This document shows, piece by piece, positions 243 through 15,553 of a stretch of DNA of 31,199 bases. How positions within the stretch are numbered: the first letter of the stretch is position 1; the number at the start of each line of letters is the position of its first letter. Made by a program: the position numbers and the translations under genes. This stretch comes from an uncultured Ideonella sp. (GTDB lineage: Bacteria; Pseudomonadota; Gammaproteobacteria; Burkholderiales; Burkholderiaceae_C), in contig CAZVNC010000001.1 of assembly GCA_964628305.1 (NCBI GenBank), positions 1 through 31,199 of the forward strand, given 5' to 3'. The notes beneath the pieces are model-generated. The model made no database searches. It saw only the letters and a program-made list of their open reading frames with translations, and was not told the origin of the DNA.

Positions 243-1430
243 TCAGACGACGACCGGAATTTCGGTCGCAGGCGGCGTGTTGCGGCTGCGGCCGCAGCGC
301 ACGATGCCGTCGATCATCACCATGCCGATGCCGGGAATGTCGCCGAGCTGGACGCTCTCGAGCAGGGTGCGTCCGGCAGTGTGCTGTGCGCGGTCCATGA
401 AGACGAAATCCGCGGCGCGGCCGGGTTCGATCAGGCCGCAGTCGAGCGAGCGCACGCGCGCCGTGTTGCCGGTCGCGAAGCAGAAGGCCTGCTCGGCCGG
501 GATGCCGCCGACGCTCGCCAGCAGCGCGATCACGCGCAGGATGCCGAGCGGCTGCACCCCCGATCCGGCCGGGCCGTCGGTGCCCAGGATGATGCGGTGC
601 GGGCACTTGAGCTGGATCGCCGCGCGCGCGGCCTCGATCGCGACTCTCTCGTTGCCGTTGTGGACGATCTCGATCCCGCGCGTCGACTTCTCGCACAGCT
701 CGCAGACGTGCGCCAGCGGCAGCGATGTGTGGCCGCCGTTGATGTGGCCGATGATGTCGGCGTCGGCTTCGAGCACCACGTCCTTGTCGATCAGCCCCGA
801 GCCGGGGATCGAAGGCCCGCCGGTGTGAATCGTGCTCTGGATGCCGTGCTTGCGCGCCCACGCCACCATGCGCTGCGCTTCCTCGCCGGCCTTGACGGAA
901 CCGAGGCCGACTTCGCCGAGCAGCTTGACACCCGCGTTGGCAAGGTCTTCGAAGTCCTGCTCGACCATGCCCTTCTCGAGCACCGGCGCGCCGGCCAGCA
1001 CCTTCACACCACCGGGACGGAAATTGTCGAACGCGCGCTGCGCGGTGATCGCGAGCGCCTTCAGTCCGACGATGTCCTTCGGGCGGCCCGGCAGGTGCAC
1101 TTCGCCGGCCGAGACCATCGTCGTCACGCCGCCGTTCATCGTCGAGTCGATCCAGCCGAGCTGATTCTGGCGCGGCGTCCAGTCGCCGAACACCGGGTGA
1201 ACGTGGCTGTCGATCAGGCCCGGGCAGACGCAGGTCCCGCGGGCGTCGATCTCCGTGTCGGGCTGCGAGATGTCGCAGTCGGCCTCCTTGCCGACCGCGG
1301 TGATCAGACCCTCGTTGACGACGATCGTGTCGGCTTGCAGGATCGGCTTGTCGATGTCACCCGAGAGCATCAGGCCGATGTTTCGAATCACGACTTTGCC
1401 GGAAGTCGGTGTTGCTGCTGCTTGTGCCAT
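243..1430 (-). CDS. ena: Enamidase-like metal-dependent amidohydrolase (1,4,5,6-tetrahydro-6-oxonicotinate hydrolase)
   Basis: HxH motif (DSHVH) and motifs recalled from E. barkeri enamidase: IG...SGDI..P.LQADTIVV, PRQ, GVTTMxSAG, PGRPKD, LEKG, GEVGLG, HTGGxSIPGS, HINGG, GDIPGI, SRNTPPA. RBS GAGGAG upstream. Sits in an hnr/nicAB context. Confidence 0.85.
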   Translation of the reverse strand: MAQAAATPTSGKVVIRNIGLMLSGDIDKPILQADTIVVNEGLITAVGKEADCDISQPDTEIDARGTCVCPGLIDSHVHPVFGDWTPRQNQLGWIDSTMNGGVTTMVSAGEVHLPGRPKDIVGLKALAITAQRAFDNFRPGGVKVLAGAPVLEKGMVEQDFEDLANAGVKLLGEVGLGSVKAGEEAQRMVAWARKHGIQSTIHTGGPSIPGSGLIDKDVVLEADADIIGHINGGHTSLPLAHVCELCEKSTRGIEIVHNGNERVAIEAARAAIQLKCPHRIILGTDGPAGSGVQPLGILRVIALLASVGGIPAEQAFCFATGNTARVRSLDCGLIEPGRAADFVFMDRAQHTAGRTLLESVQLGDIPGIGMVMIDGIVRCGRSRNTPPATEIPVVV

Positions 1431-1485: not shown

Positions 1486-2190
1486 TCACGAGGCAGTCAT
1501 CGACCGCGCGTCGAGCAAGACAGTGCGCAATACGGACTGCTTGACAAACGCTTCCCAGTGCGCGACGGCCTCGGGATGACCGAGGTCTTCGCCGAGGAAT
1601 GCCGACAGTGTGTAGCGGTTGGACTGGTAGAAGTAGCCCGTCGCCGCGATCAGCAGATAAACGTCGCGCGCCGCCACATCGGCGCGAAAGAGACCCTGGT
1701 CGACGCCGCTGCGCAGAACCTGTCCGACGACGCCGATCGCGGGCGAGGAGTACTCGCCGGCCCGACGCGACTTGCTGATGTGCCGGCCGCGGTGCAGGTT
1801 CTCGCTGTTGAGCAGCGTGACGAATTCGGGGTGCTCGCGGTAGTACGCCATCACGAAGGCGACGATCTCCAGCAGCGACTCGACCGGCCGTTCGTTGTCG
1901 AGTTCGAGCGCTGCCTCGGCCTCGTCGAATCGCCGGTAGGCCTCTTCGAGCACCGCGACGAACAGGCCTTCCTTGCTGCCGAAGTAGTAGTAGATCATCC
2001 GGTCGTAGGACTTGGCCGCCATCGAGATCTTCTCGACGCTGGCGCCGCTCAAGCCATACTTTGCGAAGATCTTCGTCGCCGCGCGCAGCAGGCTGTCGCG
2101 CGTCGCCTGCGCAGCGAGTTCGCGCACGCCCGGCTTGCGCGCCGTGCGCGGCCGGCTGCGTGAAGGACTCCTGGCGCTGCGGGGGGTCAT
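1486..2190 (-). CDS. TetR-family transcriptional regulator (NicS/RutR-like)
   Basis: TetR HTH: LLRAATKIFAKYGLSGASVEKISMAAKSYDRMIYYYFGSKEGLF. Start set at ATG 2190 (MTPRS) because the longer ORF start at 2256 overlaps the ferredoxin gene. Confidence 0.85.
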   Translation of the reverse strand: MTPRSARSPSRSRPRTARKPGVRELAAQATRDSLLRAATKIFAKYGLSGASVEKISMAAKSYDRMIYYYFGSKEGLFVAVLEEAYRRFDEAEAALELDNERPVESLLEIVAFVMAYYREHPEFVTLLNSENLHRGRHISKSRRAGEYSSPAIGVVGQVLRSGVDQGLFRADVAARDVYLLIAATGYFYQSNRYTLSAFLGEDLGHPEAVAHWEAFVKQSVLRTVLLDARSMTAS

Positions 2191-2221: not shown

Positions 2222-2560
2222 TCAGGCCTTGTCGTCAGGCAGCTTGTAGTTGGCAAGCTTGTTCTTCTCGTCCTTCCAGCGATCGACTTCGGGCAGCGGA
2301 TCCTTGCTCGAGGAGAGCACCGGCCATTGCGGCGCGAAGCGCTTGTTGATGGCGAGAAAGACCTCCTGCCCGGCAGGCACGTCTTCCTCGGCGAAGATCG
2401 CCTCGACCGGGCACTCGGGGATGCATACGGCGCAGTCGATGCACTCGTCCGGATCGATGACGAGGAAGTCGGGGCCTTCGTGGAAACAATCGACCGGGCA
2501 GACGTCGACGCAGTCGGTGTATTTGCAAAGGATGCAGCTGTCGGTCACGACATGGGTCAT
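2222..2560 (-). CDS. fdxA: 7Fe ([3Fe-4S]/[4Fe-4S]) ferredoxin, Azotobacter FdI type
   Basis: MTHVVTDSCILCKYTDCVDVCPVDCFHEG...IDPDECIDCAVCIPECPVEAI is the FdxA signature. ATG at 2560 with GAGG upstream; the ORF-track extension to 2656 is unlikely. Confidence 0.92.
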   Translation of the reverse strand: MTHVVTDSCILCKYTDCVDVCPVDCFHEGPDFLVIDPDECIDCAVCIPECPVEAIFAEEDVPAGQEVFLAINKRFAPQWPVLSSSKDPLPEVDRWKDEKNKLANYKLPDDKA

Positions 2561-2749: not shown

Positions 2750-4354
2750 ATGACGGAACACACGAAGACCGACGGCCTGCCGGGCATGGATGTGCCGCCT
2801 GTGGTGCAGGTGCTCGATCGCGCGCCGCTGCGCAACGAGCGGATGGCGGCCGACAAGGTCGAGTGCAACGCGTGCCCGATCCTGTGCCAGATCAGCCCCG
2901 GCAAGACCGGCGCCTGTGACCGCTATGCGAACGAGGACGGCACCCTCGTGCGGGTCGATCCGGTGCTTCTGCTGCGCCGCACGCTCGGCAAGAACACGCC
3001 GCCGCTGGTCGCGTTCGCGCCGCAGGGCGCGGCCGACACTACGCCCGCGCCGGCCGACTGGGACGGCGATCTGCTGCTCGCCGACGAGGTGTTCGTGACC
3101 GCGGTTGGTTCGTCGACGACCTATCCCGACTACAAGCCGGCGCCGTTCATCGTCGGCTCGAAGGCGGCCGGCGTCGACATGGTCACCGTCGTCACCGAGG
3201 GCATTTTCAGCTACTGCAGCCTGAAGGTGAAGATCGACACCGACCGCTACCTTGGCCCGGAACAGGCCAACGTGCGCTGCAAGGGCGAGGTGGTCGGACA
3301 CGTGACGACGGTCGAATACGGCTCGCAGATGCTGTCGCTCGGCGGCGTTCACCATCTCACCGGCGGCAGCAAGAAGGAAGGGCGCATCACGCTCGAGACG
3401 ATGGAGGCGCTCGGCAACAAGCGGGCGGTCGATCTGACGATCGACGGCGGCTCGCAGGTCGTGGTGCAGGCCGGGCGGGCGCCGATCGTCAACGGCGTCG
3501 AAGAGCAGCGCATGCGCGTCGGCTGCGGTTCCGCGACGATTGGCATCTTCGCGAAGCAGTTCTTCGGTCAGGCCGATGAAGTCGTCGTCGTCGACGATCA
3601 CATCACCGGCGTCCTGACCGAGCATCAGGCCGGGCGCTGCCTCGGGATGCGCCACTCGGGCATCAAGATGCGCGGGCGAAAGTCGACCCCCGGCAGGTAC
3701 TTCCAGGTCGCGAATCCCGGCACCGGCTGGGGCGGGACGGACATCGCCGATCCGCTGTCGATCGTCGATTCCTGGGATCCGAAGACGGCCTGGCCGGGCC
3801 TGCGCCTGCTGATGACGTCGACGACCGGCGAGCATGCGTCGTGGTACGTGCTCGACGAGCAACTCCAGCCGCGAGAGGAAGAGGTGCCGTCCGCGCTGCG
3901 CTCGATCATCGACCGCATTGGCGAGAACTGCGAACCGTCGCTGTGCACGGTGCTATTCCTCGGCGGTGCAGGCGGCAGCCTGCGCGCCGGGGTGACCGAG
4001 AACCCGGTGCTGCTGACGCGCTCGATCAAGCAGGCGCTCGTCAACGTGACCTGCGGCGGCGCGCCGGCCTACGTCTGGCCGGGCGGCGGCATCACGATCA
4101 TGGTCGACGTCATGCGCATGCCCGACAACAGCTTCGGAACGGTGCCGACGCCGGCGATCGTCGCGCCGATCGAGTTCAGCATGACACTCGACGACTTCGG
4201 TGCGCTCGGCGGTCACGTCGACAGCGTACGCACGCTGGAGGAGGTGCTGCGCCACGGCGCGCGCAACAACGACGGCGCGCCGACGGCGCGCCGTTGGGAG
4301 GCGGTCAATCCGGCCAATCCGTGGCCGATCGGCCATGCGCCCTTGCTAGGCTGA
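2750..4354 (+). CDS. hnr: 6-hydroxynicotinate reductase (Fe-S flavoprotein)
   Basis: N-terminal CxxCxxxC...GACDRY, TTYPDYKPAPFIV, VDMVTVVTEGIFSYC, MRVGCGSATIG, DDHITGVLTEH, STPGRYF, AGGSLRAGV and VTCGGAPAYVWPGGGI, as recalled for Hnr. Context with ena and nicAB. ATG 2750 follows GAAGGGA. Confidence 0.85.
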   Translation: MTEHTKTDGLPGMDVPPVVQVLDRAPLRNERMAADKVECNACPILCQISPGKTGACDRYANEDGTLVRVDPVLLLRRTLGKNTPPLVAFAPQGAADTTPAPADWDGDLLLADEVFVTAVGSSTTYPDYKPAPFIVGSKAAGVDMVTVVTEGIFSYCSLKVKIDTDRYLGPEQANVRCKGEVVGHVTTVEYGSQMLSLGGVHHLTGGSKKEGRITLETMEALGNKRAVDLTIDGGSQVVVQAGRAPIVNGVEEQRMRVGCGSATIGIFAKQFFGQADEVVVVDDHITGVLTEHQAGRCLGMRHSGIKMRGRKSTPGRYFQVANPGTGWGGTDIADPLSIVDSWDPKTAWPGLRLLMTSTTGEHASWYVLDEQLQPREEEVPSALRSIIDRIGENCEPSLCTVLFLGGAGGSLRAGVTENPVLLTRSIKQALVNVTCGGAPAYVWPGGGITIMVDVMRMPDNSFGTVPTPAIVAPIEFSMTLDDFGALGGHVDSVRTLEEVLRHGARNNDGAPTARRWEAVNPANPWPIGHAPLLG

Positions 4355-4359
4355 GCGCG

Positions 4360-5268
4360 ATGCCTGCCTGCCAAGCGCGCCTGCCGGATGGGAGGCTGCA
4401 TTTCCAGCACGGTCCGATCGACATCGTGATCGGCGCCGATGGCGATACGCGCGCGATCGAAGCGGCGCACGCGCTGGCGTGGCATCGCTTCGAGGGCGTG
4501 CTGGGCGAGCTCGTCGCCGAACTGCCGTTGCTGCGCAGGCCGATCGACGGCCCGTGCCGGCTGACGGGTCCAATCGCGCGGCGCATGTGGCTCGCGTGCG
4601 AGCCGTACCGCGAGGGCTACATCACGCCGATGGCCGCGGTCGCGGGTGCGGTCGCGCAGGAGTTGATCGCGTGCTACGAGCGCGACGGCATCGAGCGCGC
4701 CTGGGTCAACGACGGCGGCGACATCGCCTGGCACCTGGCGTCGCACCGTTCGCTGCGCGTCGGCCTGTTCGCCGACCTCTCCCGGCTCGACGCAGACCAG
4801 ATCCTGAACGGCATCCGCAGCGACGGCCAACTCGACGTGACGCACGACATGCCGGTGCGCGGCGTCGCGACCAGCGGCTGGCGCGGACGCAGCTTCTCGC
4901 GCGGCATCGCCGACAGCGTCACGGTGCTTGCGCGCACCGCGGCCGAGGCGGACGCTGCGGCGACGGTCATCGCGAATGCGGTCGACGTGAACGATGCGCG
5001 CATCGTTCGCAAGCCGGCCTGCGAACTGAAGGACGACAGCGATCTCGGCGCAATCGCCGTCACGGTCGACGTGCCGCCGCTCGGCGCCGACGTCGCGCGG
5101 CGCGCGCTGGCGGCCGGCGCGCGCTGCGCCGCGGGCCTGCGCGATGCGGGTCGGATCTGGTCTTGCACCCTCGTTTGCCAGGGTCAGGTAACCTACGTCG
5201 GCGAGACGCAGTTCGAGCACGCGGTCGAAGTGCACGCGACACCTGTTCACGCCACAGCGGTGGTTTGA
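4360..5268 (+). CDS. UPF0280-family protein (ApbE-like fold)
   Basis: HFQHGPID, TPMAAVAGAVA, VNDGGDIA, GVATSGWRGRSFSRGIADSVTV, AEADAAATVIAN are typical of UPF0280/ApbE-like proteins. ATG 5 nt after the hnr stop; no signal peptide. Confidence 0.85.
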   Translation: MPACQARLPDGRLHFQHGPIDIVIGADGDTRAIEAAHALAWHRFEGVLGELVAELPLLRRPIDGPCRLTGPIARRMWLACEPYREGYITPMAAVAGAVAQELIACYERDGIERAWVNDGGDIAWHLASHRSLRVGLFADLSRLDADQILNGIRSDGQLDVTHDMPVRGVATSGWRGRSFSRGIADSVTVLARTAAEADAAATVIANAVDVNDARIVRKPACELKDDSDLGAIAVTVDVPPLGADVARRALAAGARCAAGLRDAGRIWSCTLVCQGQVTYVGETQFEHAVEVHATPVHATAVV

Positions 5269-5295
5269 ACCGAAGTCCGAGAGGAGTCCGAGTTG

Positions 5296-5937
5296 ATGAT
5301 CGAAGTTCGACGCGTCCTGACCCAGGTGGAGGAGATCCGCCACGAGTTCGGCCCTGCGCCCGAAGTGCCACTGTTGCGCGGTGCGATCGCGGTCGTGATG
5401 CGTAACCCGTTTGCGGGCCGCTACGAGGCCGACCTCCTGCCGATGATGGAAGCGCTCGAGCCGGTCGGTGTCGACATGGCGCACCGCCTGCGCGCGGCGA
5501 TGGGCATCGCGGTCGAGCGCATCGAGGGCTACGGCAAGGGATCGATCGTCGGCAGTGGCGGCGAACTCGAGCATGGTGCGCTGTGGCACGTGCCGGGCGG
5601 CTATGCGATGCGCGAACTGCTCGGCTGGAAGGGCGATCGCGCCGCGTATGCAAAGGGGCAGGGCGAAGCGAAGAGCGGTCAGCCCGGCAATGCGCTTGCG
5701 ATCGTGCCGTCGACGAAGAAGGTCGGCGCCCCCGGCACGGCGCTCGACGTGCCGCTGACGCACATCAACGCCGCCTATGTGCGCAGCCATTTCGACGCCA
5801 TGGAGGTGCGCGTGCCAGGTGCTCCGGCGGCGGACGAGCTGGTCTTCATCCTCGCGATGAGTACCGGATCGCGAATCCACGCCCGCGTCGGCGGCCTGGC
5901 CGCGAGCGCGATCAAGAACTGGGACGGCCTGCGCTGA
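5296..5937 (+). CDS. AA_synth (DUF1185, chorismate-mutase-like fold) family protein, paralogue 1
   Basis: NPFAGRY, IEGYGKGSIVG..GELEHGA, VPSTKKVG, DVPL.H.NAAYVRSHFDAME. RBS GAGGAG at 5281-5286. Start could be TTG 5293 or ATG 5296. Confidence 0.8.
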   Translation: MIEVRRVLTQVEEIRHEFGPAPEVPLLRGAIAVVMRNPFAGRYEADLLPMMEALEPVGVDMAHRLRAAMGIAVERIEGYGKGSIVGSGGELEHGALWHVPGGYAMRELLGWKGDRAAYAKGQGEAKSGQPGNALAIVPSTKKVGAPGTALDVPLTHINAAYVRSHFDAMEVRVPGAPAADELVFILAMSTGSRIHARVGGLAASAIKNWDGLR

Positions 5938-5978: not shown

Positions 5979-6563
5979 ATGTCTGCCAAGATTCGCAAGA
6001 TCGTGGTTCAGGTCGACGAAGTCCGCATCGAGATGGGCCGCCCGGTCGAGCCGCCGACCCGCCGCGCGCTGGCCATGGCGGTAATCGACAACCCCTGCGC
6101 CGGCCGCTACGTCGAGAACCTCGACGAACTCAGCGCCATCGGCGAGGAACTCGGCGGACTGCTCGGCAAGCGCTGCGTCGACGCGCTCGGCATCGCGCCG
6201 GGGCAGGCGCAAAGTTACGGCAAGGCGGCGATCGTCGGTGAAGCGGGCGAGATCGAACACGCCGCCGCCATCCTGCACCCCAAGCTCGGCGCGCCGCTGC
6301 GCGCCGCGGTCGAGAAGGGCGCCGCGCTCGTTCCGTCGAGCAAGAAGCGCGGCGGCCTCGGCACCGCGATCGACGTGCCGCTCGGCCACAAGGACGCGGC
6401 CTTCGTGCGCAGCCATTTCGACGCCATGGAGGCGCGCATCGGCGACGCGCCGCGCGCGAACGAGATCGTCGTCGCGGTCGTCGTCACCGACAGCGGCCGG
6501 CCGCTGGCGCGCGTCGGCGGGCTGAAGGCAAGCGAGATCAAGGGCGAGGACGGCCTGCGTTGA
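5979..6563 (+). CDS. AA_synth (DUF1185) family protein, paralogue 2
   Basis: MSAKIRKIVVQVDE, NPCAGRY, QSYGKAAIVGEAGEIEHAAAILHP, VPSSKKRG, DVPLGHKDAAFVRSHFDAME, GRPLARVGGL. Start at ATG 5979; the ORF-track start at 5583 lies inside the previous gene. Confidence 0.82.
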   Translation: MSAKIRKIVVQVDEVRIEMGRPVEPPTRRALAMAVIDNPCAGRYVENLDELSAIGEELGGLLGKRCVDALGIAPGQAQSYGKAAIVGEAGEIEHAAAILHPKLGAPLRAAVEKGAALVPSSKKRGGLGTAIDVPLGHKDAAFVRSHFDAMEARIGDAPRANEIVVAVVVTDSGRPLARVGGLKASEIKGEDGLR

Positions 6564-6615: not shown

Positions 6616-7827
6616 ATGACCCACCGCAGACAGGTTTGGCGCGCCGCCGCCGCATCGATGGCCTTTGCCGTCGTCGGCATGTCGCAGGCGTACGGCGCCG
6701 ACGTGATCAAGATCGGCGAGATCAACAGCTACAAGGCACAGCCGCAGTTCCTCGAGCCCTACAAGAAGGGCATGGAACTCGCCGTCGAGGAGATCAACGC
6801 GGCCGGCGGCATCAACGGCAAGAAGGTCGAACTGATCACGCGCGACGACAACGCCAACCCGGGCGATGCGGTGCGCGCAGCCGAGGAGTTGATCTCGCGC
6901 GAAAAGGTCGACGTGCTGACGGGAACCTTCCTTTCGCACATCGGCCTTGCGGTCACGGACTTTGCCAAACAGAAGAAGACCTTCTTTCTCGCCGCCGAAC
7001 CGCTGACCGACAAGATCGTCTGGGAGGACGGCAACAAGTACACCTACCGTCTGCGCCCCTCCACCTACATGCAGGTCGCGATGCTGGTGCCCGAAGCGGT
7101 GAAGATGAACAAGAAGCGCTGGGCGGTCGTCTACCCGAACTATGAGTACGGGCAATCGGCGGTCGCGACCTTCAAGAAGCTGATGAAGGCGGCTCAGCCC
7201 GATATCGAATTCGTCGCCGAGCAGGCGCCGCCACTGGGCAAGGTCGACGCGGGCAGCGTGGTGCAGGCGCTCGCCGATGCCAAACCCGATGCGATCTTCA
7301 ACGTGCTGTTCGGCGCCGACCTCGCGAAGTTCGTGCGCGAAGGCAATACGCGCGGCCTGTTCAAGGACCGTGAAGTCGTGAGCATGCTGACCGGCGAGCC
7401 CGAGTACCTGGAACCGCTGAAGAACGAGGCACCCAACGGCTGGGTCGTGACTGGCTACCCGTGGTATGGCATCGACATTCCCGAGCACAAGACCTTTCTT
7501 GCGGCCTACCAGGCGAAGTGGAAGGACCATCCGTACCTCGGCTCGATCGTCGGCTACAGCGCGATCAAGTCGCTCGCCGCCGGCATCAAGAAGGCCAATT
7601 CGACGCAGACCGACGCGCTGGTACAGGCCTTCAGCGGACTCGAGGTCGACTCGCCGTTCGGCAAGATCACCTACCGGCCGATCGATCACCAATCGACCAT
7701 GGGCGGCTTCGTCGGCCGCACCAAGAACGTCGACGGCAAGGGCGTGATGGTCGACTACAAGTATCTCGACGGCGCGAAGTACATGCCGTCGGACGCGGAA
7801 GTGAAGAAGATGCGGCCCGCCGACTGA
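6616..7827 (+). CDS. ABC transporter substrate-binding protein, branched-chain amino-acid (LivK-like) family; probable nicotinate-type ligand
   Basis: Signal peptide, IKIGEINSY, EEINAAGGINGKKVELITRDD, YTYRLRPST, PNYEYGQS. RBS AGGAG. Confidence 0.88.
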   Translation: MTHRRQVWRAAAASMAFAVVGMSQAYGADVIKIGEINSYKAQPQFLEPYKKGMELAVEEINAAGGINGKKVELITRDDNANPGDAVRAAEELISREKVDVLTGTFLSHIGLAVTDFAKQKKTFFLAAEPLTDKIVWEDGNKYTYRLRPSTYMQVAMLVPEAVKMNKKRWAVVYPNYEYGQSAVATFKKLMKAAQPDIEFVAEQAPPLGKVDAGSVVQALADAKPDAIFNVLFGADLAKFVREGNTRGLFKDREVVSMLTGEPEYLEPLKNEAPNGWVVTGYPWYGIDIPEHKTFLAAYQAKWKDHPYLGSIVGYSAIKSLAAGIKKANSTQTDALVQAFSGLEVDSPFGKITYRPIDHQSTMGGFVGRTKNVDGKGVMVDYKYLDGAKYMPSDAEVKKMRPAD

Positions 7828-7836
7828 TTCTGCGTT

Positions 7837-7922
7837 GCTTCGATCGACATGGGCGCGTGCCCCACGGCACGTGCCCCATTCGATCCGCGCGCCATCGAAG
7901 CCGGTGGGCTGCAAAGCCCGCC
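7837..7922 (+). other. Intercistronic stem-loops downstream of the binding-protein gene (candidate mRNA-stabilising element)
   Basis: GGGCGCGTGCC-CCAC-GGCACGTGCCC (7851-7876), flanked by GCTTCGAT/ATCGAAGC (7837-7844, 7894-7901), then GGTGGGCT-GCAA-AGCCCGCC (7903-7922) with a GNRA loop. Confidence 0.5.
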
Positions 7923-7968
7923 CTGAGCGATTTCCGGTTCCCTCGAACCCGCAACCGCAGGTCCCGTC

Positions 7969-9861
7969 ATGAGCTTCTCCGGTCTCATCGTTCAGCTTCT
8001 CAACGGCCTGGCGGGCGCCTCGTCGTTGTTCATGGTGGGCGCCGGGTTGTCGCTGATCTTCGGCGTGACCCGGATCGTCAACTTCGCCCACGGATCGTTC
8101 TACATGGTAGGCATCTACGTTGCCTATTCGCTCGTCGAACGCTTCAGCAGCGGCTTCGGCTTCTGGCCGGCGCTGCTGCTCGCGGCGGTTGTCGTCGGCG
8201 TGCTCGGCGCGCTGATCGAGATCGTGCTGCTGCGCCGCATCTATCGCGCGCCCGAGCTTTTCCAGTTGCTCGCGACGTTTGCGCTCGTGCTTGTCTTCAA
8301 GGACGCGGTGCTCTGGTATTGGGGGCCCGAGGAACTGCTCGGGCCGCGCGCGCCGGGCCTGTCGGGATCGGTCATGATCCTCGGGCGCCAGTTCCCGTCC
8401 TACGACCTGCTGCTCATCTTCGTCGGCCCGATCGTCCTCGGCCTGCTCTGGCTGCTGCTCACGCGCACCCGCTGGGGCACGCTGGTGCGCGCCGCGACGC
8501 AGGACCGCGAGATGGTCGCCGCACTCGGCGTCAACCAGGCGTGGCTGTTCACGGCGGTGTTCGCGCTCGGCGCGATGCTCGCCGGACTCGGCGGCGCGCT
8601 GCAACTGCCGCGCGAACCGGCCAATCTCGAACTCGACCTGCAGATCATCGGTGGCGCATTCGTCGTCGTCGTCGTCGGCGGCATGGGATCGATTCCGGGC
8701 GCCTTCGTCGCCGCGCTGCTGATTGCGGAGCTGAAGGCGATCTGCATCTGGCTCGGCCTGGTCGATGTGCTGGGCGTCAGCGTCTCGTTCTCCAAGCTGA
8801 CATTGGTTGTCGAGTTTCTCGTCATGGCAGTCGTCCTGGTGTGGCGCCCATGGGGATTGATGGGGCGTGAGCAAGCGCCGAGCCGGCATGTCGGCCCGGT
8901 CGAGGCGCCGCTTCGTCCGGCCGACAACCTGTTCAAGGCGGGCGCCGCGATCCTGCTGCTGGCGCTCGTCGTGACGCCGCTGCTGACTGCCGACTCGCCG
9001 TATACGACGGTGCTGATCATCGACCTGCTGATCGCCGCGCTGTTCGCGACAAGCCTGCACTTCATCATGGGCCCCGGGGGCATGCATTCGTTCGGCCACG
9101 CCGCCTATTTCGGGCTCGGTGCGTACGGCGCGGCGCTGCTGCTGCGGGCGCTGCCGATGGAGCTGGCGCTGATCCTCGCGCCGGTCGTCGGCGCCCTTGG
9201 CGCAGTGCTCTTCGGCTGGTTCTGCGTGCGCCTGTCGGGGGTCTATCTCGCGATGCTGACGCTCGCCTTCGCGCAGATCGCGTGGGCGATCGTCTATCAA
9301 TGGGACAGCTTCACCGGCGGCAGCAACGGCATCACCGGAGTCTGGCCAGCGTCGTGGCTGACGGGAGGCAGCAGCTACTACTACCTGACGCTCGTGCTGG
9401 TCGTCGGCTCGATGCTGCTGCTGCGGCGCGCGCTGTTCTCGCCGTTCGGCTATGCGATGCGCGCCGGCCGCGATTCGCCGCTGCGCGCCGACGCGATCGG
9501 TATCGACGTCAAGCGCAACCAGTGGATCGCGTTCACGATCGCGGGTCTTTTTGCCGGGCTGGCCGGGGCGCTGTTCGCGTTCTCGAAGGGCAGCATTTCG
9601 CCCGAAGGGCTGTACGTCAGCAAGTCGATCGACGGCCTGGTGATGGTGCTGCTCGGCGGCTTGCAGACGCTTTCGGGCGGTGCGGTCGGTGCGGTTGTCT
9701 TCACCTGGCTGCACGACACCGTCGCCCGCAATACCGAGTACTGGCGGGCGATGCTGGGCGCGATCATCCTGATTCTGGTGCTGCTCTTTCCGCAGGGGAT
9801 CGCCGGCTTCCTGCGTCAGATCGTCTACGGCCAGCGTGAAGCGAAGGGAGGGCAGCCATGA
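7969..9861 (+). CDS. Fused ABC permease (LivH + LivM domains)
   Basis: N-half has GLSLIFGVTRIVNFAHG and GGMGSIPGA (LivH-like). C-half has GMHSFGHAAYFGLGAY, YLAMLTLAFAQ and TGGSNGI (LivM-like). One continuous 630-aa hydrophobic ORF. Confidence 0.88.
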   Translation: MSFSGLIVQLLNGLAGASSLFMVGAGLSLIFGVTRIVNFAHGSFYMVGIYVAYSLVERFSSGFGFWPALLLAAVVVGVLGALIEIVLLRRIYRAPELFQLLATFALVLVFKDAVLWYWGPEELLGPRAPGLSGSVMILGRQFPSYDLLLIFVGPIVLGLLWLLLTRTRWGTLVRAATQDREMVAALGVNQAWLFTAVFALGAMLAGLGGALQLPREPANLELDLQIIGGAFVVVVVGGMGSIPGAFVAALLIAELKAICIWLGLVDVLGVSVSFSKLTLVVEFLVMAVVLVWRPWGLMGREQAPSRHVGPVEAPLRPADNLFKAGAAILLLALVVTPLLTADSPYTTVLIIDLLIAALFATSLHFIMGPGGMHSFGHAAYFGLGAYGAALLLRALPMELALILAPVVGALGAVLFGWFCVRLSGVYLAMLTLAFAQIAWAIVYQWDSFTGGSNGITGVWPASWLTGGSSYYYLTLVLVVGSMLLLRRALFSPFGYAMRAGRDSPLRADAIGIDVKRNQWIAFTIAGLFAGLAGALFAFSKGSISPEGLYVSKSIDGLVMVLLGGLQTLSGGAVGAVVFTWLHDTVARNTEYWRAMLGAIILILVLLFPQGIAGFLRQIVYGQREAKGGQP

Positions 9862-10640
9862 GCCTGCTCGAGGTGCGCGGTCTGGGCAAGTCCTTCGGCG
9901 GCAACAGGGCGGTGGACGGGGTCGACTTCAGGCTCGAAGCGGGTGAACTGCTGGCCCTGATCGGACCGAACGGCGCCGGCAAGTCGACGACCTTCAACAT
10001 GGTCAACGGCCAGTTGCGCGCCGATTCCGGCTCGATCCTGCTCGACGGCAAGGAACTCATCGGCCTGCGGCCGCGCCAGATCTGGCAGCTCGGGGTCGGG
10101 CGCACTTTCCAGATCGCCGCCACGTTCGCGTCGCTGACGGTCGTCGAGAACGTGCAGATGGCGCTGATCTCCGCCGACCGCAAGCTGTACTCGATGTGGC
10201 GGCCGGCAGCCGCGCACAAGCGTCTGGAGGCGATCGAGTTGTTGGCCCAGGTGGGGATGTCCGAACAGGCCGATCGGCCGTGCAGCGTGCTCGCCTACGG
10301 CGACGTGAAAAGGGTCGAGCTGGCAATCGCGATGGCGAACCAGCCCAAGCTGCTGCTGATGGACGAGCCGACGGCCGGGATGGCGCCCAAGGAGCGCAAC
10401 GAACTGATGGCGCTGACCAAGAAGCTCGTCGTCGAGCGCAACATCGGCGTGCTCTTCACCGAGCACAGCATGGACGTTGTCTTCGCCTACGCCGATCGCA
10501 TGATCGTCCTGGCCCGCGGGCGACTGATCGCCGAAGGCAAGCCGCTCGAGATTCGCGATCACCCGAAGGTGCAGGAGGTCTACTTCGGCTCCGGCAAGAC
10601 CTTCGAGAAGGAAGCGGCGGGCGCAGGAGCGCCAGCATGA
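9858..10640 (+). CDS. ABC ATP-binding protein (LivG-like)
   Basis: Walker A GPNGAGKST, LLLMDEPTAG, TEHSM. ATGA overlap with the permease stop. Confidence 0.92.
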   Translation: MSLLEVRGLGKSFGGNRAVDGVDFRLEAGELLALIGPNGAGKSTTFNMVNGQLRADSGSILLDGKELIGLRPRQIWQLGVGRTFQIAATFASLTVVENVQMALISADRKLYSMWRPAAAHKRLEAIELLAQVGMSEQADRPCSVLAYGDVKRVELAIAMANQPKLLLMDEPTAGMAPKERNELMALTKKLVVERNIGVLFTEHSMDVVFAYADRMIVLARGRLIAEGKPLEIRDHPKVQEVYFGSGKTFEKEAAGAGAPA

Positions 10641-11386
10641 GCGCAGCGACGAAGGCCGCCGAGCAGCCGTTGCTCGAGGTGATCGATCTCGCGGCCTGGT
10701 ATGGCGCGGCGCAGATCCTGTTCCAGGTCGACGTCGAGGTGCGGCGCGGCGAAGTCGTCGCGCTGATGGGGCGCAACGGCGCCGGCAAGTCGACGACCCT
10801 GAAGGCGATCATGGGTTTGCTCGACAAGTACAAGGGCACGATGAGCTTCATGGGGCGCGACATCTCGACCAGCGACCCGCACGACGTGGCGTCGCACGGG
10901 CTCGGCTACGTACCCGAAGACCGCCGCATCTTCACCGACCTCACGGTGCTCGAGAACCTCGAGGTCGGCCGGCAGGACGCCCGCCAGTGGCCGGACGGGT
11001 CGCCGGCGCCGCTGTGGACGGCCGAGCGCCTGTTCAAGCTGTTCCCGAATCTCGGCGAGATGCCGAATCGTCCCGGCGGCAGCATGAGCGGCGGCGAGCA
11101 GCAGATGCTGACCGTGGCACGAACGCTGATGGGCAACCCCTTTCTCGTGCTGCTCGACGAGCCGTCCGAAGGCGTCGCGCCTGTCATTGTCGAGCAGATG
11201 GCGCACATGATCCAGGAGTTGAAGACGCAGGGCGTGAGCATCTTGCTGTCCGAGCAGAACATGCACTTTGCCGAACTCGTTTCCGATCGCGCCTACGTGC
11301 TCGAGAAGGGCCAGATCCGGTTCAAGGGCACGATGGCGGAACTCGCTGCCGCCGAGGATGTGCGGCGCGCCTACCTGAGTGTCTGA
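10637..11386 (+). CDS. ABC ATP-binding protein (LivF-like)
   Basis: GRNGAGKST, signature MSGGEQQML, LLDEPSEG, SEQN. ATGA overlap at 10637-10640. Confidence 0.92.
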   Translation: MSAATKAAEQPLLEVIDLAAWYGAAQILFQVDVEVRRGEVVALMGRNGAGKSTTLKAIMGLLDKYKGTMSFMGRDISTSDPHDVASHGLGYVPEDRRIFTDLTVLENLEVGRQDARQWPDGSPAPLWTAERLFKLFPNLGEMPNRPGGSMSGGEQQMLTVARTLMGNPFLVLLDEPSEGVAPVIVEQMAHMIQELKTQGVSILLSEQNMHFAELVSDRAYVLEKGQIRFKGTMAELAAAEDVRRAYLSV

Positions 11387-11930
11387 CGCAGGGGCCTTGG
11401 CGCCGGTGCGGCTGAAGGAATCCGTGTCCGCCACCATGCCCGCGCTCGTCGAGACGAAGCTCGTCGTGAACGGCAAGCCGCAGGCCCTGTCGTGTCTGCC
11501 CGGCACGACGCTGCTCACCGCGCTGCGCAATGACCTGTGCCTGAACGGCCCGAAGTACGGTTGCGGTCTGGGCGAGTGCGGCGCCTGCACCGTGCTCGTC
11601 GACGGCGTCGCGGCGCGCGCCTGCGTGATTCCGCTCGCCGGCGTTGCCGGCCGCTCGGTGACGACGCTCGAAGGGCTGGCTGACGAACGCGGACTGCATC
11701 CGGTGCAGAAGGCCTTCATCGACGCCCAGGCCGCGCAATGCGGTTATTGCCTGAACGGCATGCTGATGATGACGGTCGCGCTGCTCGCGCGCACGCCGCA
11801 GCCGACCGAGCAGCAGGTGCGCCAGGCGCTGTCGGCGAATCTCTGCCGTTGCGGCACGCACGTCGAGATCATCGCTGCCGCGCTGCGGGCGGCCGAATTG
11901 ACCGCGCGTGCGGCGAAAGGATCGGCGTGA
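11379..11930 (+). CDS. nicA: Nicotinate dehydrogenase small [2Fe-2S]x2 subunit (NicA-like)
   Basis: GPKYGCGLGECGACTV, AQCGYC and NLCRCGT xanthine-oxidase-family Fe-S motifs; directly upstream of a NicB-like gene. Start uncertain (GTG 11379 or ATG 11436). Confidence 0.8.
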   Translation: MSDAGALAPVRLKESVSATMPALVETKLVVNGKPQALSCLPGTTLLTALRNDLCLNGPKYGCGLGECGACTVLVDGVAARACVIPLAGVAGRSVTTLEGLADERGLHPVQKAFIDAQAAQCGYCLNGMLMMTVALLARTPQPTEQQVRQALSANLCRCGTHVEIIAAALRAAELTARAAKGSA

Positions 11931-14900
11931 GCGCCGCGCGCATGCTGCGTACGCGGCGCGACTTCCTGCAGGCCTCCGGCGCGCTCGTCGTGATGCGCGA
12001 GCCGCCCGAGGCGCAGCCGCAGGCGCCGGGCCAGCCGCCGATGATCCCGCCCAATCCGGACGAGGGCGTCGAGATCCTGCTTGCGGTCTGGGACGACGGC
12101 CGGGTCACGGGGCTCAACGGCCACGTCGACCTCGGCACCGGCATCCGCACCGCGCTCGCGCAGATCATCGCCGAGGAACTCGATGTCGAACCGGGGCAGG
12201 TGGACATGGTGCTCGGCGACACCGCGATGGCGCCGAACCAGGGGCCGACGATCGCGAGCGCGTCGATCCAGATCACCGCCGTGCCGCTGCGCCAGGCGGC
12301 GGCGCAGGCGCGTGCGTTCCTGCTCGCGCGCGCCGCCGACGCGCTTGGCGCCGCAGCGGCCGAACTCGTCGTCGAACGCGGCGTCATCAACCACGGGCAG
12401 CGCCACATCGGCTACGCCGATCTGGTGCGCGGCGAGCGGCTGCATCTGATGCTCGACCCCGAGATCGCTGTCAAGCCGGTGCAGCAGTACCGGGTCGTCG
12501 GCCAGTCGGCGCCGCGCGTCGACATTGCGGCGAAGGTCGCCGGCGAACTCGTCTTCGTGCACGACAAGCGGCTGCCCGGCATGCTGCACGGGCGCGTCGT
12601 GCGCCCGCCGTATGCCGGCGCGGACCACGGCGACTTCATCGGCAACACGCTCGAATCGGTCGATGAATCCTCGATCGCGCACATCCCGGGGGTGCGCGCC
12701 GTGGTCGTGATCCGGGACTTCGTCGGCGTCGTCGCCGAGCGCGAAGAGCAGGCCGAGGCCGCCGCGCTTGCACTGAAGGTGGTCTGGCGCGCGTGGCCCG
12801 GGTTTCCGTCGCTCGACGATCCGGCCCGCGCCTTGCGCGACAACCCGGCGGTTGCGCGCCAGGTGGTCGACGACGGCGATGTGGATGCGGCGCTTTCGAC
12901 CGCGGCGCACGCATTGCACCGCGAATACGTCTGGCCCTACCAGATGCACGCCTCGATCGGCCCGTCGTGCGGCGTCGCGCAGTGGCATGGCGGCGATTCG
13001 CATCCGGCGCTGACGGTCTGGACCGGAAGCCAGAACCCGCACGTGCTGCGCGCCGACCTGTCGAAGTTGATGCAACTGCCCGACGTCGATGTCGAGGTCA
13101 TCCGGATGGAGGCCTCCGGCTGCTACGGCCGCAACAGCGCCGACGACGTCTGCGCCGATGCCGCGCTGCTGTCGCGCGCGGTGCGGGCCCCGGTTCGCGT
13201 GCAACTGAGCCGCGAGCAGGAGAACCTCTGGGAGCCGAAGGGCGCGGCGCAACTGATGACGGTGCGCGGCGCACTCGACGCTGGCGGGGCGATGGCGGCC
13301 TATGACTTCGCGACCTCGTACCCGTCGAACGCGGCGCCGACGCTGGCATTGCTGCTGACGCGCACGATCGAGCCGCTGGCGCAGGCGTTCGCGATGGGCG
13401 ACCGCACCGCGCGGCCGCCGTATGAAGTGCCCAATCTGCGCGTCACGATCAACGACATGGCGCCGATTCTTCGCGCGTCGTGGCTGCGCGGCGTGTCGGC
13501 GCTGCCGAACTCGTTCGCCCACGAGTCCTATGTCGACGAGCTGGCGACTGCGGCGGGCGTCGATCCGGTCCAGTTCCGGCTGCGCCATCTGACGGACCCG
13601 CGCGCGATCGACGTGCTGCGCAGCACCGCCGAACGTGCCGGCTGGGTGGCGCACACCGGCCCGCAACAAATGGAGTCGAGCGGCGACCGGCTGCGCGGGC
13701 AGGGCGTCGCGTACGCGCGCTACATGCACAGCAAGTGGCCGGGGTTCGGCGCCGCGTGGACGGCCTGGGTCGCCGACGTCGAGGTCGATCGCAACACCGG
13801 CGAGGTGCACGTCAGCCGGATCGTCGTCGGCCACGATTCGGGGCAGGTCGTCAACCCGGCCGGCGTGCGCCACCAGGTGCAGGGCAACGTCGTGCAGACG
13901 ACGAGCCGCGCGCTGAAGGAGCGCGTGGAGGTCGATCCGGCGACCTCGGCGATCGTCAATCGCGAGTGGGGCAGCTACCCGATCCTCGGTTTCGCTGATC
14001 TGCCGACGATCGAGGTCCACATCATGCCGCGCCAGAGCGAGCCGCCGCTCGGTGCCGGCGAGTCGTCGTCGGTGCCGGGCACGGCGGCGATCGCGAACGC
14101 GATCTTCGATGCGACCGGGGTGCGATTTCGCCATCCGCCGTTCACTGCCGAGGTCGTCCGGGCGGCAATCAACCCGTTGCCTGCGCCGGCGGCGCCGCCG
14201 GTGGAAGCCGTCGGCCATCCGACGCCGGCCGATGCGTCATGGCCGCGGCGGCGGTCCTGGTGGGCGAAGGGCCTGGCGCTCGCGGCAAGCGTCGCCGGTG
14301 TCGCGGCGGCGGCCTTCGGTTGGAGGCCGGCGATCGCGCCGGTGTCGCGCATCGACACCTCGGTCTACGCTGCTGACGCGATCGAGCGCGGCCGGGTGCT
14401 CGCCGCGGCCGGCAACTGCGCGACCTGCCACACGGCGCCCGGCGGTGCGGTCAACGCCGGCGGCCTCGCGATGCCGACGCCGTTCGGCACCGTCTACTCG
14501 ACGAACCTGACGCCCGACGCCGACACCGGCATCGGCGCCTGGTCGTTCAGCGCGTTCCAGCGCGCGATGCGCGAAGGCGTCTCGCGCGACGGCCATCTGC
14601 TGTACCCCGCGTTTCCGTACACCGCGTTCGCGAAGGTGAGCGACGACGATCTGATGGCGCTCTACGCGTATCTGATGGTGCAGCCCGCGGTGCGCGCTGC
14701 GGTGCCCGAGACAAAGCTTGCATTCCCGTTCGGCATGCGTCCGCTGCTGGCGTTCTGGAATGCCTTGTTCCACGACCCGAAGGCGGTTGCGCAGACCGAC
14801 CCGGTGCGCTCTGCACAGTGGAACCGCGGCGCCTACCTCGTCGACGGGCTCGGGCACTGCGGCGCCTGCCACACCGAGCGCAACGCGTTTGGCGCCGAGC

Positions 14901-15553
14901 GCGAAGGCAAGGCGTATCTCGGCGGCGCGTTCGTCAAGGGCTGGGAGGCACCGGCGCTCACGTCGGCGACGCGCGCCCCGGTGCCGTGGACCGAGCAGTC
15001 GCTGTTCGACTACCTGCGCGTCGGGCACAGCGCGCTGCACGGCGTCGCGTCCGGCCCGATGGCGCCGGTGGTGCGCGAGTTCTCCGCGCTGCCCGACGCC
15101 GACATCCGCGCGATGGCGCACTACCTGGCGTCGTTCAACCCGCCGCTGACAGACGCGCAGGCGGCGAGTGCAGCGGCGGCCGCGGTGGCGACGGCGCAGG
15201 CCGGTGCGGCGATGCTTGCCGGACCGGCGCAGCGCATGTTCGATACGGCGTGCGCCGGCTGCCACCACGACGGCGACGGCCCGCAATTGCTCGGCGCGAA
15301 CGTGCCGCTCGCGTTGAACAGCAACCTGCACGCGGACCGCCCCGACAATCTGCTGCGCGTGATCCTCGAAGGGCACCTCGAGCCGGCGTCGATCGAACTC
15401 GGCTTCATGCCGGCCTTTGGCGCGGCCTACAGCGACCGCCAGCTTGCTGAGTTGGCCGACTTCATGCGCCAGCGCTTCGCGCCCGGCAAGCCGCGCTGGA
15501 CGAATCTGGAGGCCGAGGTGGCGCGGGTGCGCGCCGCGCCGTCCAATCCGTGA
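11927..15553 (+). CDS. nicB: Nicotinate dehydrogenase large subunit (NicB-like): molybdopterin-binding domains, a transmembrane helix and three c-type cytochrome sites
   Basis: GHVDLGTGIRTALAQ, QGPTIASAS, SGCYGRN, ASWLRGVSALPN and GAGE, then a hydrophobic helix (WWAKGLALAASVAGVAAAAFGW) and three CxxCH motifs (CATCH, CGACH, CAGCH). This is the architecture known for P. putida NicB. GTGA overlap with nicA at 11927-11930. Confidence 0.82.
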   Translation: MSAARMLRTRRDFLQASGALVVMREPPEAQPQAPGQPPMIPPNPDEGVEILLAVWDDGRVTGLNGHVDLGTGIRTALAQIIAEELDVEPGQVDMVLGDTAMAPNQGPTIASASIQITAVPLRQAAAQARAFLLARAADALGAAAAELVVERGVINHGQRHIGYADLVRGERLHLMLDPEIAVKPVQQYRVVGQSAPRVDIAAKVAGELVFVHDKRLPGMLHGRVVRPPYAGADHGDFIGNTLESVDESSIAHIPGVRAVVVIRDFVGVVAEREEQAEAAALALKVVWRAWPGFPSLDDPARALRDNPAVARQVVDDGDVDAALSTAAHALHREYVWPYQMHASIGPSCGVAQWHGGDSHPALTVWTGSQNPHVLRADLSKLMQLPDVDVEVIRMEASGCYGRNSADDVCADAALLSRAVRAPVRVQLSREQENLWEPKGAAQLMTVRGALDAGGAMAAYDFATSYPSNAAPTLALLLTRTIEPLAQAFAMGDRTARPPYEVPNLRVTINDMAPILRASWLRGVSALPNSFAHESYVDELATAAGVDPVQFRLRHLTDPRAIDVLRSTAERAGWVAHTGPQQMESSGDRLRGQGVAYARYMHSKWPGFGAAWTAWVADVEVDRNTGEVHVSRIVVGHDSGQVVNPAGVRHQVQGNVVQTTSRALKERVEVDPATSAIVNREWGSYPILGFADLPTIEVHIMPRQSEPPLGAGESSSVPGTAAIANAIFDATGVRFRHPPFTAEVVRAAINPLPAPAAPPVEAVGHPTPADASWPRRRSWWAKGLALAASVAGVAAAAFGWRPAIAPVSRIDTSVYAADAIERGRVLAAAGNCATCHTAPGGAVNAGGLAMPTPFGTVYSTNLTPDADTGIGAWSFSAFQRAMREGVSRDGHLLYPAFPYTAFAKVSDDDLMALYAYLMVQPAVRAAVPETKLAFPFGMRPLLAFWNALFHDPKAVAQTDPVRSAQWNRGAYLVDGLGHCGACHTERNAFGAEREGKAYLGGAFVKGWEAPALTSATRAPVPWTEQSLFDYLRVGHSALHGVASGPMAPVVREFSALPDADIRAMAHYLASFNPPLTDAQAASAAAAAVATAQAGAAMLAGPAQRMFDTACAGCHHDGDGPQLLGANVPLALNSNLHADRPDNLLRVILEGHLEPASIELGFMPAFGAAYSDRQLAELADFMRQRFAPGKPRWTNLEAEVARVRAAPSNP

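Follow-up and report, generated by a model that had tools for sequence, protein, structure and literature searches.

The UPF0280 gene beside hnr in an uncultured Ideonella: a candidate cytoplasmic flavin transferase for 6-hydroxynicotinate reductase

What is a member of the UPF0280 family doing directly behind the gene for 6-hydroxynicotinate reductase (Hnr, EC 1.3.7.1)? The question is raised by a 31,199-nucleotide stretch of DNA from an uncultured Ideonella sp. (contig CAZVNC010000001.1 of assembly GCA_964628305.1), the whole of which is called the window here. Within it the hnr frame (2750-4354, with its TGA stop at 4352-4354) is followed at position 4360 by the ATG of a 302-codon UPF0280 frame that ends at 5268. 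The original prediction, drawn from the sequence alone, had put the UPF0280 start 5 nt past the hnr stop, and its coordinates and spacing are exact. It went on to propose that the UPF0280 protein is a cytoplasmic relative of the ApbE transferases and attaches flavin mononucleotide (FMN) to Hnr. The Hnr of Eubacterium barkeri is said to contain a covalently bound flavin, a finding credited to Alhapel and co-workers in 2006; nothing in the searchable literature connects Hnr with flavin.

The answer offered here comes in parts of unequal strength. There is little doubt in our minds that the UPF0280 protein is dedicated to Hnr and acts as its functional partner. As for what it does to Hnr, no single mechanism fits better than FMN transfer, though we hold it tentatively; it is favoured because the bimetal centre of the ApbE enzymes is conserved, because there is a precedent for a cytoplasmic ApbE, and because of the covalent flavin reputed to be present in the E. 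barkeri enzyme.

The pairing of hnr and UPF0280

Two genome samples, 301 genomes from the same order and 351 from the phylum, were surveyed together with 83 fetched hnr loci; related genomes are not independent, and the results are therefore given as counts without statistics. In the order sample Hnr was found in 28 genomes and the UPF0280 family model NF003322 in 29, a set that includes all 28 Hnr genomes, while in the phylum sample the two proteins occur in the identical 19 genomes and their genes are adjacent in every one. At the level of single loci, hnr is followed directly by UPF0280 on the same strand in 82 of 83, and at the sole exception just 145 bases of contig remain downstream of hnr. 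Co-occurrence across genomes, which the original prediction had suggested examining, thus proves to be that of a near-obligate pair. The adjacency is far beyond chance, and almost invariably the two genes share both inheritance and transcription.

The junction itself is usually tight. Gaps between the tblastn matches to the two genes in relatives run from 5 to 156 nt with a median of about 16, gene calls at two divergent loci (L118 and L119) overlap by 4 or 8 nt, and one genome (G264) has the two 13.6 kb apart. In another genome (G342:C1:2969820-2972130) hnr is matched as two segments that overlap, residues 36-276 and residues 248-528, which suggests a frameshifted or split gene, and the UPF0280 gene directly downstream is intact. 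Rosetta-stone fusions of Hnr and UPF0280 were not found among the long representatives, in which the extra length takes the form of internal insertions or N-terminal extensions.

Strict same-strand adjacency with short or overlapping junctions is typical of the subunits of one complex, and the UPF0280 fold carries a nucleotide-binding pocket. Both observations would suit a protein that is not a modifying enzyme but a stoichiometric subunit of Hnr in Proteobacteria, or its electron-transfer or regulatory partner, in which case it might hold a nucleotide or flavin non-covalently. We consider this improbable. UPF0280 diverges much faster than Hnr (median identity to the window's proteins 63% against 79%), a trait often seen in accessory factors, although that is our own reading and no tested rule; the E. 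barkeri enzyme is reported to have contained one kind of polypeptide when purified; and the conserved catalytic-type residues described below (Mg2+ ligands, Ser and Arg) suggest turnover over scaffolding.

The pair also outlasts changes around it. It is kept in five divergent metagenomic clusters, four of which carry a nicotinate dehydrogenase of the FAD/Fe-S/Mo xanthine-dehydrogenase type, and L119, the fifth, shows none in its flanks; within the fetched flanks, AA_synth genes are missing from three of the five and the enamidase-like (ena-like) amidohydrolase from two. This persistence bears on another idea, namely that UPF0280 is a separate enzyme of nicotinate catabolism, acting on a small molecule such as an intermediate formed after ring reduction and tied to hnr by shared regulation only. 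The lower pathway after the enamidase is indeed unaccounted for in the window, and four conserved arginines (R12, R59, R177 and R217) could bind a carboxylate substrate. The hnr-specific pairing nevertheless survives where ena-like or AA_synth genes are missing from the fetched flanks and where the dehydrogenase is of the other type, and we know of no ApbE-fold protein that works as a small-molecule catabolic enzyme. The idea is accordingly given very little credence here.

Fold and active site of the UPF0280 protein

Within the ApbE superfamily the 302-residue protein falls in the UPF0280/COG2122/DUF375 branch. It scores 385.4 bits against NCBIfam NF003322 (PRK04334/UPF0280), where the cut-off is 290, and 66-76 bits against the remaining PRK04334 models; its relatives carry PF27030 (AbpE_bact) among the precomputed matches of Pfam 38. 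A search for representatives returned 1,851 clusters at 50% identity, and the representatives of 102 of these make up the alignment used below. PDB ApbE chains match the family profile at an E value of about 1. The AlphaFold2 (AF2) model, which has a mean predicted local distance difference test (pLDDT) of 93.2 and a predicted template modelling (TM) score of 0.90, has the two-T-fold architecture of ApbE over the whole chain, with the fold aligning from residue 9, and resembles the structure of DVU1097 (2o34). Against the ApbE/Ftp/FmnB transferases themselves (PF02424, EC 2.7.1.180), however, Foldseek gives TM-scores of only 0.31-0.49.

The N-terminus lacks a hydrophobic stretch, the highest 11-residue Kyte-Doolittle mean within the first 50 residues being 0.63, and this bears out the earlier claim that the protein has no signal peptide and is cytoplasmic. 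A canonical ApbE of the same genome has, by contrast, a twin-arginine (Tat) signal, and one from a related genome has a lipobox. Two canonical ApbE genes lie elsewhere in the window's genome, one at G000:C38:2516-3361, with the Tat signal, and one at G000:C227:1961-2823; the match to the latter is broken into two parts that lie in different frames, pointing to a frameshift or a sequencing error. The cytoplasmic precedent comes from Klebsiella pneumoniae, in which a cytoplasmic ApbE serves a neighbouring soluble fumarate reductase (PMC12052999).

Residue correspondences were taken from a profile-profile comparison (hhalign) of UPF0280 with 26 canonical ApbEs from related genomes, which aligned residues 92-201 at a probability of 96.6% and an E value of 5.6e-10. 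On this alignment the Asp of the ApbE G-G-D motif corresponds to D121, the Ser of T-S-G (S240 of Ftp_Tp, the Treponema pallidum enzyme) to S172, and the Asp and Thr of A-D-x-x-x-T (D284 and T288 of Ftp_Tp) to D198 and T202. Conservation across the 102 homologues is 100% for D121, S172 and D198 and 99% for T202, and R177, the counterpart of Ftp_Tp R245, is conserved in 97%. The protein thus keeps the bimetal (Mg2+) centre of ApbE-type transferases together with the neighbouring Ser and Arg. The position of Ftp_Tp E244 is Gly in UPF0280.

Mutational work on the T. pallidum enzyme indicates how much each of these residues matters. D284 and T288 bind Mg2+ in its first sphere, and both activities are lost with D284A, while mutants of S240, E244, R245 and H256 lose activity only in part (PMC4436053); the Mg2+ ligands alone are critical for FMN transfer (PMC4767422). 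UPF0280 conserves these ligands and therefore retains what matters most in the ApbE active site. The comparison of Mg- and FAD-binding residues that the original prediction had called for therefore gives a divided result, in that the Mg2+ ligands D198 and T202 are there but the FAD-binding half cannot be aligned by sequence with hhalign.

If FMN transfer is the right reading, events might run as follows. With the hnr-UPF0280 message translated, UPF0280 would bind a pyrophosphate-linked dinucleotide, most likely flavin adenine dinucleotide (FAD), at its Mg2+ site and would move the FMN moiety onto a non-canonical acceptor in Hnr, a residue with a hydroxyl side chain. The product would be a covalent flavin such as that attributed to the E. 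barkeri enzyme, and it would link a one-electron ferredoxin, the product of the upstream gene fdxA, to the reduction of 6-hydroxynicotinate by two electrons. As the loop bearing the general-base His is missing from UPF0280, activation of the acceptor would fall to Hnr itself or to another UPF0280 residue, for which H14 (88% conserved) would be one candidate.

Hnr as the acceptor, and the COG1900 systems

That the hnr product is what its name implies is supported from several sides. Relatives of the 534-residue protein are named 6-hydroxynicotinate reductase by NCBI; in Foldseek its match to Q0QLF7, the characterised enzyme of E. barkeri, has an E value of 9.6e-49, with TM-scores of 0.68/0.72 and 39% identity over 470 residues; and the context, with NicAB-type genes and an Amidohydro_1 gene in the same cluster, fits. 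Profile scans placed it in no Pfam or NCBIfam family, and a protein-language-model atlas search returned no named family beyond Fer4-containing relatives. The AF2 model has a pLDDT of 74, with the core (130-500) well predicted, and seven cysteines are invariant (C39, C42, C46, C56, C156, C259 and C394). The E. barkeri Hnr, at 499 residues, aligns to residues 29-498 of the window's protein, and its length leaves little space for an extra N-terminal two-[4Fe-4S] domain; Fer4 domains are present in other Hnr relatives from Bacillota and from Thermodesulfobacteriota. One metagenomic homologue (P0295, 654 residues) is duplicated internally, residues 10-329 and 323-636 both matching Hnr; it lies on a 2.7-kb contig and is probably an assembly artefact.

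Where on Hnr a flavin might go is less plain. The original prediction had found no canonical acceptor motif in Hnr and had pointed to two near-variants, DHITGVLT and GCGSATIG. Our motif search agrees on the first point, and relaxed versions of the motif give a single match, DHITGVLT itself. This segment is conserved as DHITG[VQI]L[TS] in 50 Hnr homologues, with T286 invariant and position 290, just ahead of helix 293-297 in the AF2 model, always Ser or Thr; in two more distant homologues it reads DDHITAVLT (L118) and DEHITGVLS (L119). Of the proposed near-variant sites, then, T286 in the first and S261 in the second are invariant and, with position 290, stand as candidates, but T263 and the motif-like Asp and Gly vary. 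Other invariant hydroxyl residues of Hnr, among them S312/T313 and S410, are candidates too.

Several observations weigh against FMN transfer, and they are best taken together. On the side of Hnr, the canonical motif D-x-x-[ST]-G-A-[ST] is present neither in Hnr nor in its 50 homologues nor in any frame of the window; the loss of D or G from DHITGVL[TS] in L118 and L119 implies that the Asp and Gly of the near-variant are unconstrained; and in GCGSAT, next to the invariant S261, T263 is not conserved. Most covalent flavoproteins attach their flavin autocatalytically through His or Cys (PMC12052999), and invariant His and Cys residues of Hnr could carry such a linkage. Pfam detects no FMN_bind domain in Hnr, no PDB relative was found by sequence and no solved structural relative either, and structure searches with the model recognised no flavin-binding fold; in both respects, the missing domain and the missing motif, Hnr differs from the partners of known ApbE systems.

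On the side of UPF0280, the match to Pfam ApbE (PF02424) is 17.2 bits (E 0.0038), below the cut-off of 25.6. The ApbE H-x-x-D-P-x-T-G loop with its general-base His (Ftp H256, H257 of Vibrio cholerae ApbE) is deleted, appearing as a gap in the UPF0280 profile, and the Lys of A-K-G-Y is absent; the conserved His residues of UPF0280 sit elsewhere (H14, and H17 at 77%). Nothing aligns by sequence to ApbE before residue 92, in the N-terminal FAD-binding half where the ApbE Tyr or Asn stacks on the isoalloxazine ring, and Price et al. had already remarked that the homology between COG2122 and ApbE seems not to reach the flavin-binding region (PMC5764234). The nearest studied relatives, the COG2122 proteins MA1715, DvMF_0044 and DVU1097, serve homocysteine synthesis, in which no flavin is known, and MA1715 of Methanosarcina acetivorans has been interpreted as a sulfur-trafficking protein (PMC5764234; PMC12068725). 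Lastly, one genome that is 97% complete (G099) has an intact UPF0280 and no Hnr detectable genome-wide, even by family profile. There the UPF0280 gene (3732-4646 of locus L116, G099:C121:1-8000) stands with AA_synth and ABC binding protein genes, and a gene for an FMN-dependent dehydrogenase (PF01070) lies upstream on the opposite strand; the locus is either a decaying cluster or a sign of a second client for UPF0280. The proposal that UPF0280 flavinylates Hnr thus comes through in its dedicated pairing, cytoplasmic location, ApbE fold and Mg2+ ligands, and falters at the Pfam threshold, the His loop and the sequence of the FAD-binding half.

The COG2122 relatives bring in the main rival explanation, according to which UPF0280 matures Hnr by chemistry that does not involve flavin, doing the same job that COG2122 does for COG1900/DUF39 enzymes. 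That job might be, for example, the loading or repair of another cofactor or metal site, or the addition of a small group from a nucleotide-activated donor. Among the COG1900/DUF39 enzymes are MMP16, a coenzyme M synthase, and the L-aspartate-semialdehyde sulfurtransferase that takes part in homocysteine synthesis, and like Hnr these COG1900 partners are ferredoxin-linked reductive Fe-S enzymes. In Desulfovibrio vulgaris Miyazaki the fitness of the COG2122 gene is correlated at 0.98 with that of the DUF39 gene, and it is needed for methionine prototrophy and homocysteine synthesis (PMC5764234).

Whether Hnr resembles COG1900 was a question set beforehand, COG1900 enzymes being the known partners of the UPF0280 family. 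By sequence there is no signal between Hnr and DUF39, a Pfam scan at E values up to 10 giving only a chance match to GCV_T_C. By shape, the first non-Hnr families in an ESM Atlas search are two clusters of PF01837 (HcyBio/COG1900), one L-ASST-like (TM 0.32/0.44, 208 residues) and one labelled 'methanogenesis marker 16' (TM 0.34/0.41, 224 residues), both aligning to Hnr residues 133-533; radical SAM clusters come next and lower, at 0.21-0.22/0.30. In the Swiss-Prot part of AFDB the sole other high-probability match is O27719, an uncharacterised 431-residue Methanothermobacter protein (probability 0.98, TM 0.26/0.32). Bacillota relatives of Hnr carry Fer4 domains, and in MMP16 a ferredoxin domain is inserted within the COG1900 domain (PMC12068725). 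The resemblance between the Hnr core and COG1900 is weak, with every TM-score below 0.5, and on these models it is suggestive.

Non-flavin maturation along these lines is possible, though we think it doubtful. The Hnr-COG1900 likeness it leans on is slight (0.32-0.44) and has no backing from sequence, and the Mg2+ ligands, Ser and Arg suggest phosphoryl or nucleotidyl chemistry, for which FAD fits as well as other donors do. Nor can the persulfide relay proposed for MA1715 be carried over: the methanogen COG2122 protein has a C-terminal Cys-rich motif (PMC9431491), whereas no Cys is conserved in the 102 homologues of the hnr-linked branch, and the relay was rejected for this branch on that ground. 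The hnr-linked branch also forms an NCBIfam equivalog of its own, NF003322, and its partner is Hnr where that of COG2122 in the homocysteine pathway is DUF39. PF01837 (DUF39) was found neither in the window's genome (72% complete; E up to 10) nor in 401 sampled genomes of the phylum, which indicates that the hnr-linked UPF0280 branch serves Hnr and not DUF39.

A broader view would join the two sets of observations, making Hnr a distant structural relative of COG1900/DUF39 and the UPF0280/COG2122 proteins the ancestral ApbE-like modifiers of that ferredoxin-dependent reductase group. As matters stand this is unlikely.

The surrounding genes and wider meaning

The window is GC-rich (62-72% per 1-kb window) and comes from a metagenome-assembled genome that is 72% complete; the closest related record is an Ideonella metagenome-assembled genome at 94% identity. 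The genes around hnr (Table 1) form a nicotinate catabolic cluster.

Table 1. Genes and spacer around hnr in the window, with the evidence for each assignment
Feature	Coordinates	Strand	Evidence
Enamidase-like amidohydrolase (ena), ring opening after Hnr	243..1430	-	Pfam Amidohydro_1, E 5e-14
TetR-family regulator	1486..2190	-	Pfam TetR_N + TetR_C_29, E 9e-40
7Fe-type ferredoxin (Fer4 + DUF3470), divergent from hnr	2222..2560	-	Pfam DUF3470, E 1e-12; Fer4 families
hnr, 6-hydroxynicotinate reductase homologue, 534 aa	2750..4354	+	Names of NCBI relatives; Foldseek match Q0QLF7
hnr-UPF0280 spacer, 5 nt, GCGCG	4355..4359	+	Sequence
UPF0280/COG2122/DUF375-type ApbE-fold protein, 302 aa, cytoplasmic	4360..5268	+	
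AA_synth (PF06684/DUF1185) paralogue 1	5293..5937	+	Pfam, E 2e-66
AA_synth (PF06684/DUF1185) paralogue 2	5979..6563	+	Pfam, E 2e-72
Branched-chain-type ABC importer: binding protein, fused permease, two ATPases	6616..11386	+	Pfam Peripla_BP_6, BPD_transp_2, ABC_tran twice
NicA/NicB-type nicotinate hydroxylase: 2Fe-2S subunit; Mo subunit fused to cytochrome c domains	11379..15553	+	

The upstream 7Fe-type ferredoxin (fdxA) is the likely electron donor of Hnr, and the ABC importer is presumed from its context to take up nicotinate. The hydroxylase carries the Pfam domains Fer2_2, MoCoBD_1/2, Cytochrom_C and Cytochrome_CBB3. At related loci ena is next to hnr in 73 of 83, with a median identity of 84%, and AA_synth paralogue 1 is present in 79 of 83, though the flanks fetched for L086, L087 and L118 lack it. 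The tandem AA_synth paralogues diverge unequally, with median identities to relatives of 78% for the first and 50% for the second, which is the fastest-evolving gene of the cluster, and their linkage to hnr is looser than that of UPF0280.

Nicotinate clusters are known from Eubacterium barkeri, Azorhizobium caulinodans and Bradyrhizobiaceae (Shettigar et al. 2012, PMC3511419). The window differs from these in having a NicAB-type hydroxylase with cytochrome c domains and two AA_synth paralogues. None of the searchable papers on such clusters gives a UPF0280 gene a function.

Two of the divergent metagenomic loci show how the setting of the pair can change. In one (L118:5475-14611) the genes after hnr and UPF0280 encode the ABC importer and hydantoinase A, and neither an ena-like amidohydrolase nor AA_synth is encoded within 7 kb, an arrangement that may represent a variant ring-opening route. 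The other (L119:5434-11706) is an operon in which hnr and UPF0280 are joined by two AA_synth genes, by ena and by genes for a Pyr_redox_2 reductase and a 2Fe-2S ferredoxin, with no nicotinate hydroxylase nearby; it looks like a complete chain of electron supply from NAD(P)H to Hnr.

UPF0280/COG2122 is a widespread family without a biochemical function, and the only members studied are needed for anaerobic homocysteine synthesis. The hnr-linked branch offers a clean test system for the family, consisting of one soluble enzyme and one helper, both of which could be expressed in E. coli. If UPF0280 does transfer FMN to Hnr, protein flavinylation would gain a non-canonical acceptor site and a mechanism that does without the His, and two conserved unknowns would be named in a nicotinate pathway that matters for bacteria of soil and roots. 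Such a result would also redirect work on the synthesis of homocysteine and coenzyme M in methanogens and sulfate reducers. Should the broader kinship of Hnr with COG1900 hold as well, MA1715 would equip its COG1900 partner with a cofactor derived from a nucleotide, FMN being the simplest choice, and that cofactor would explain how enzymes of the COG1900 type turn one-electron input from ferredoxin into two-electron reductions.

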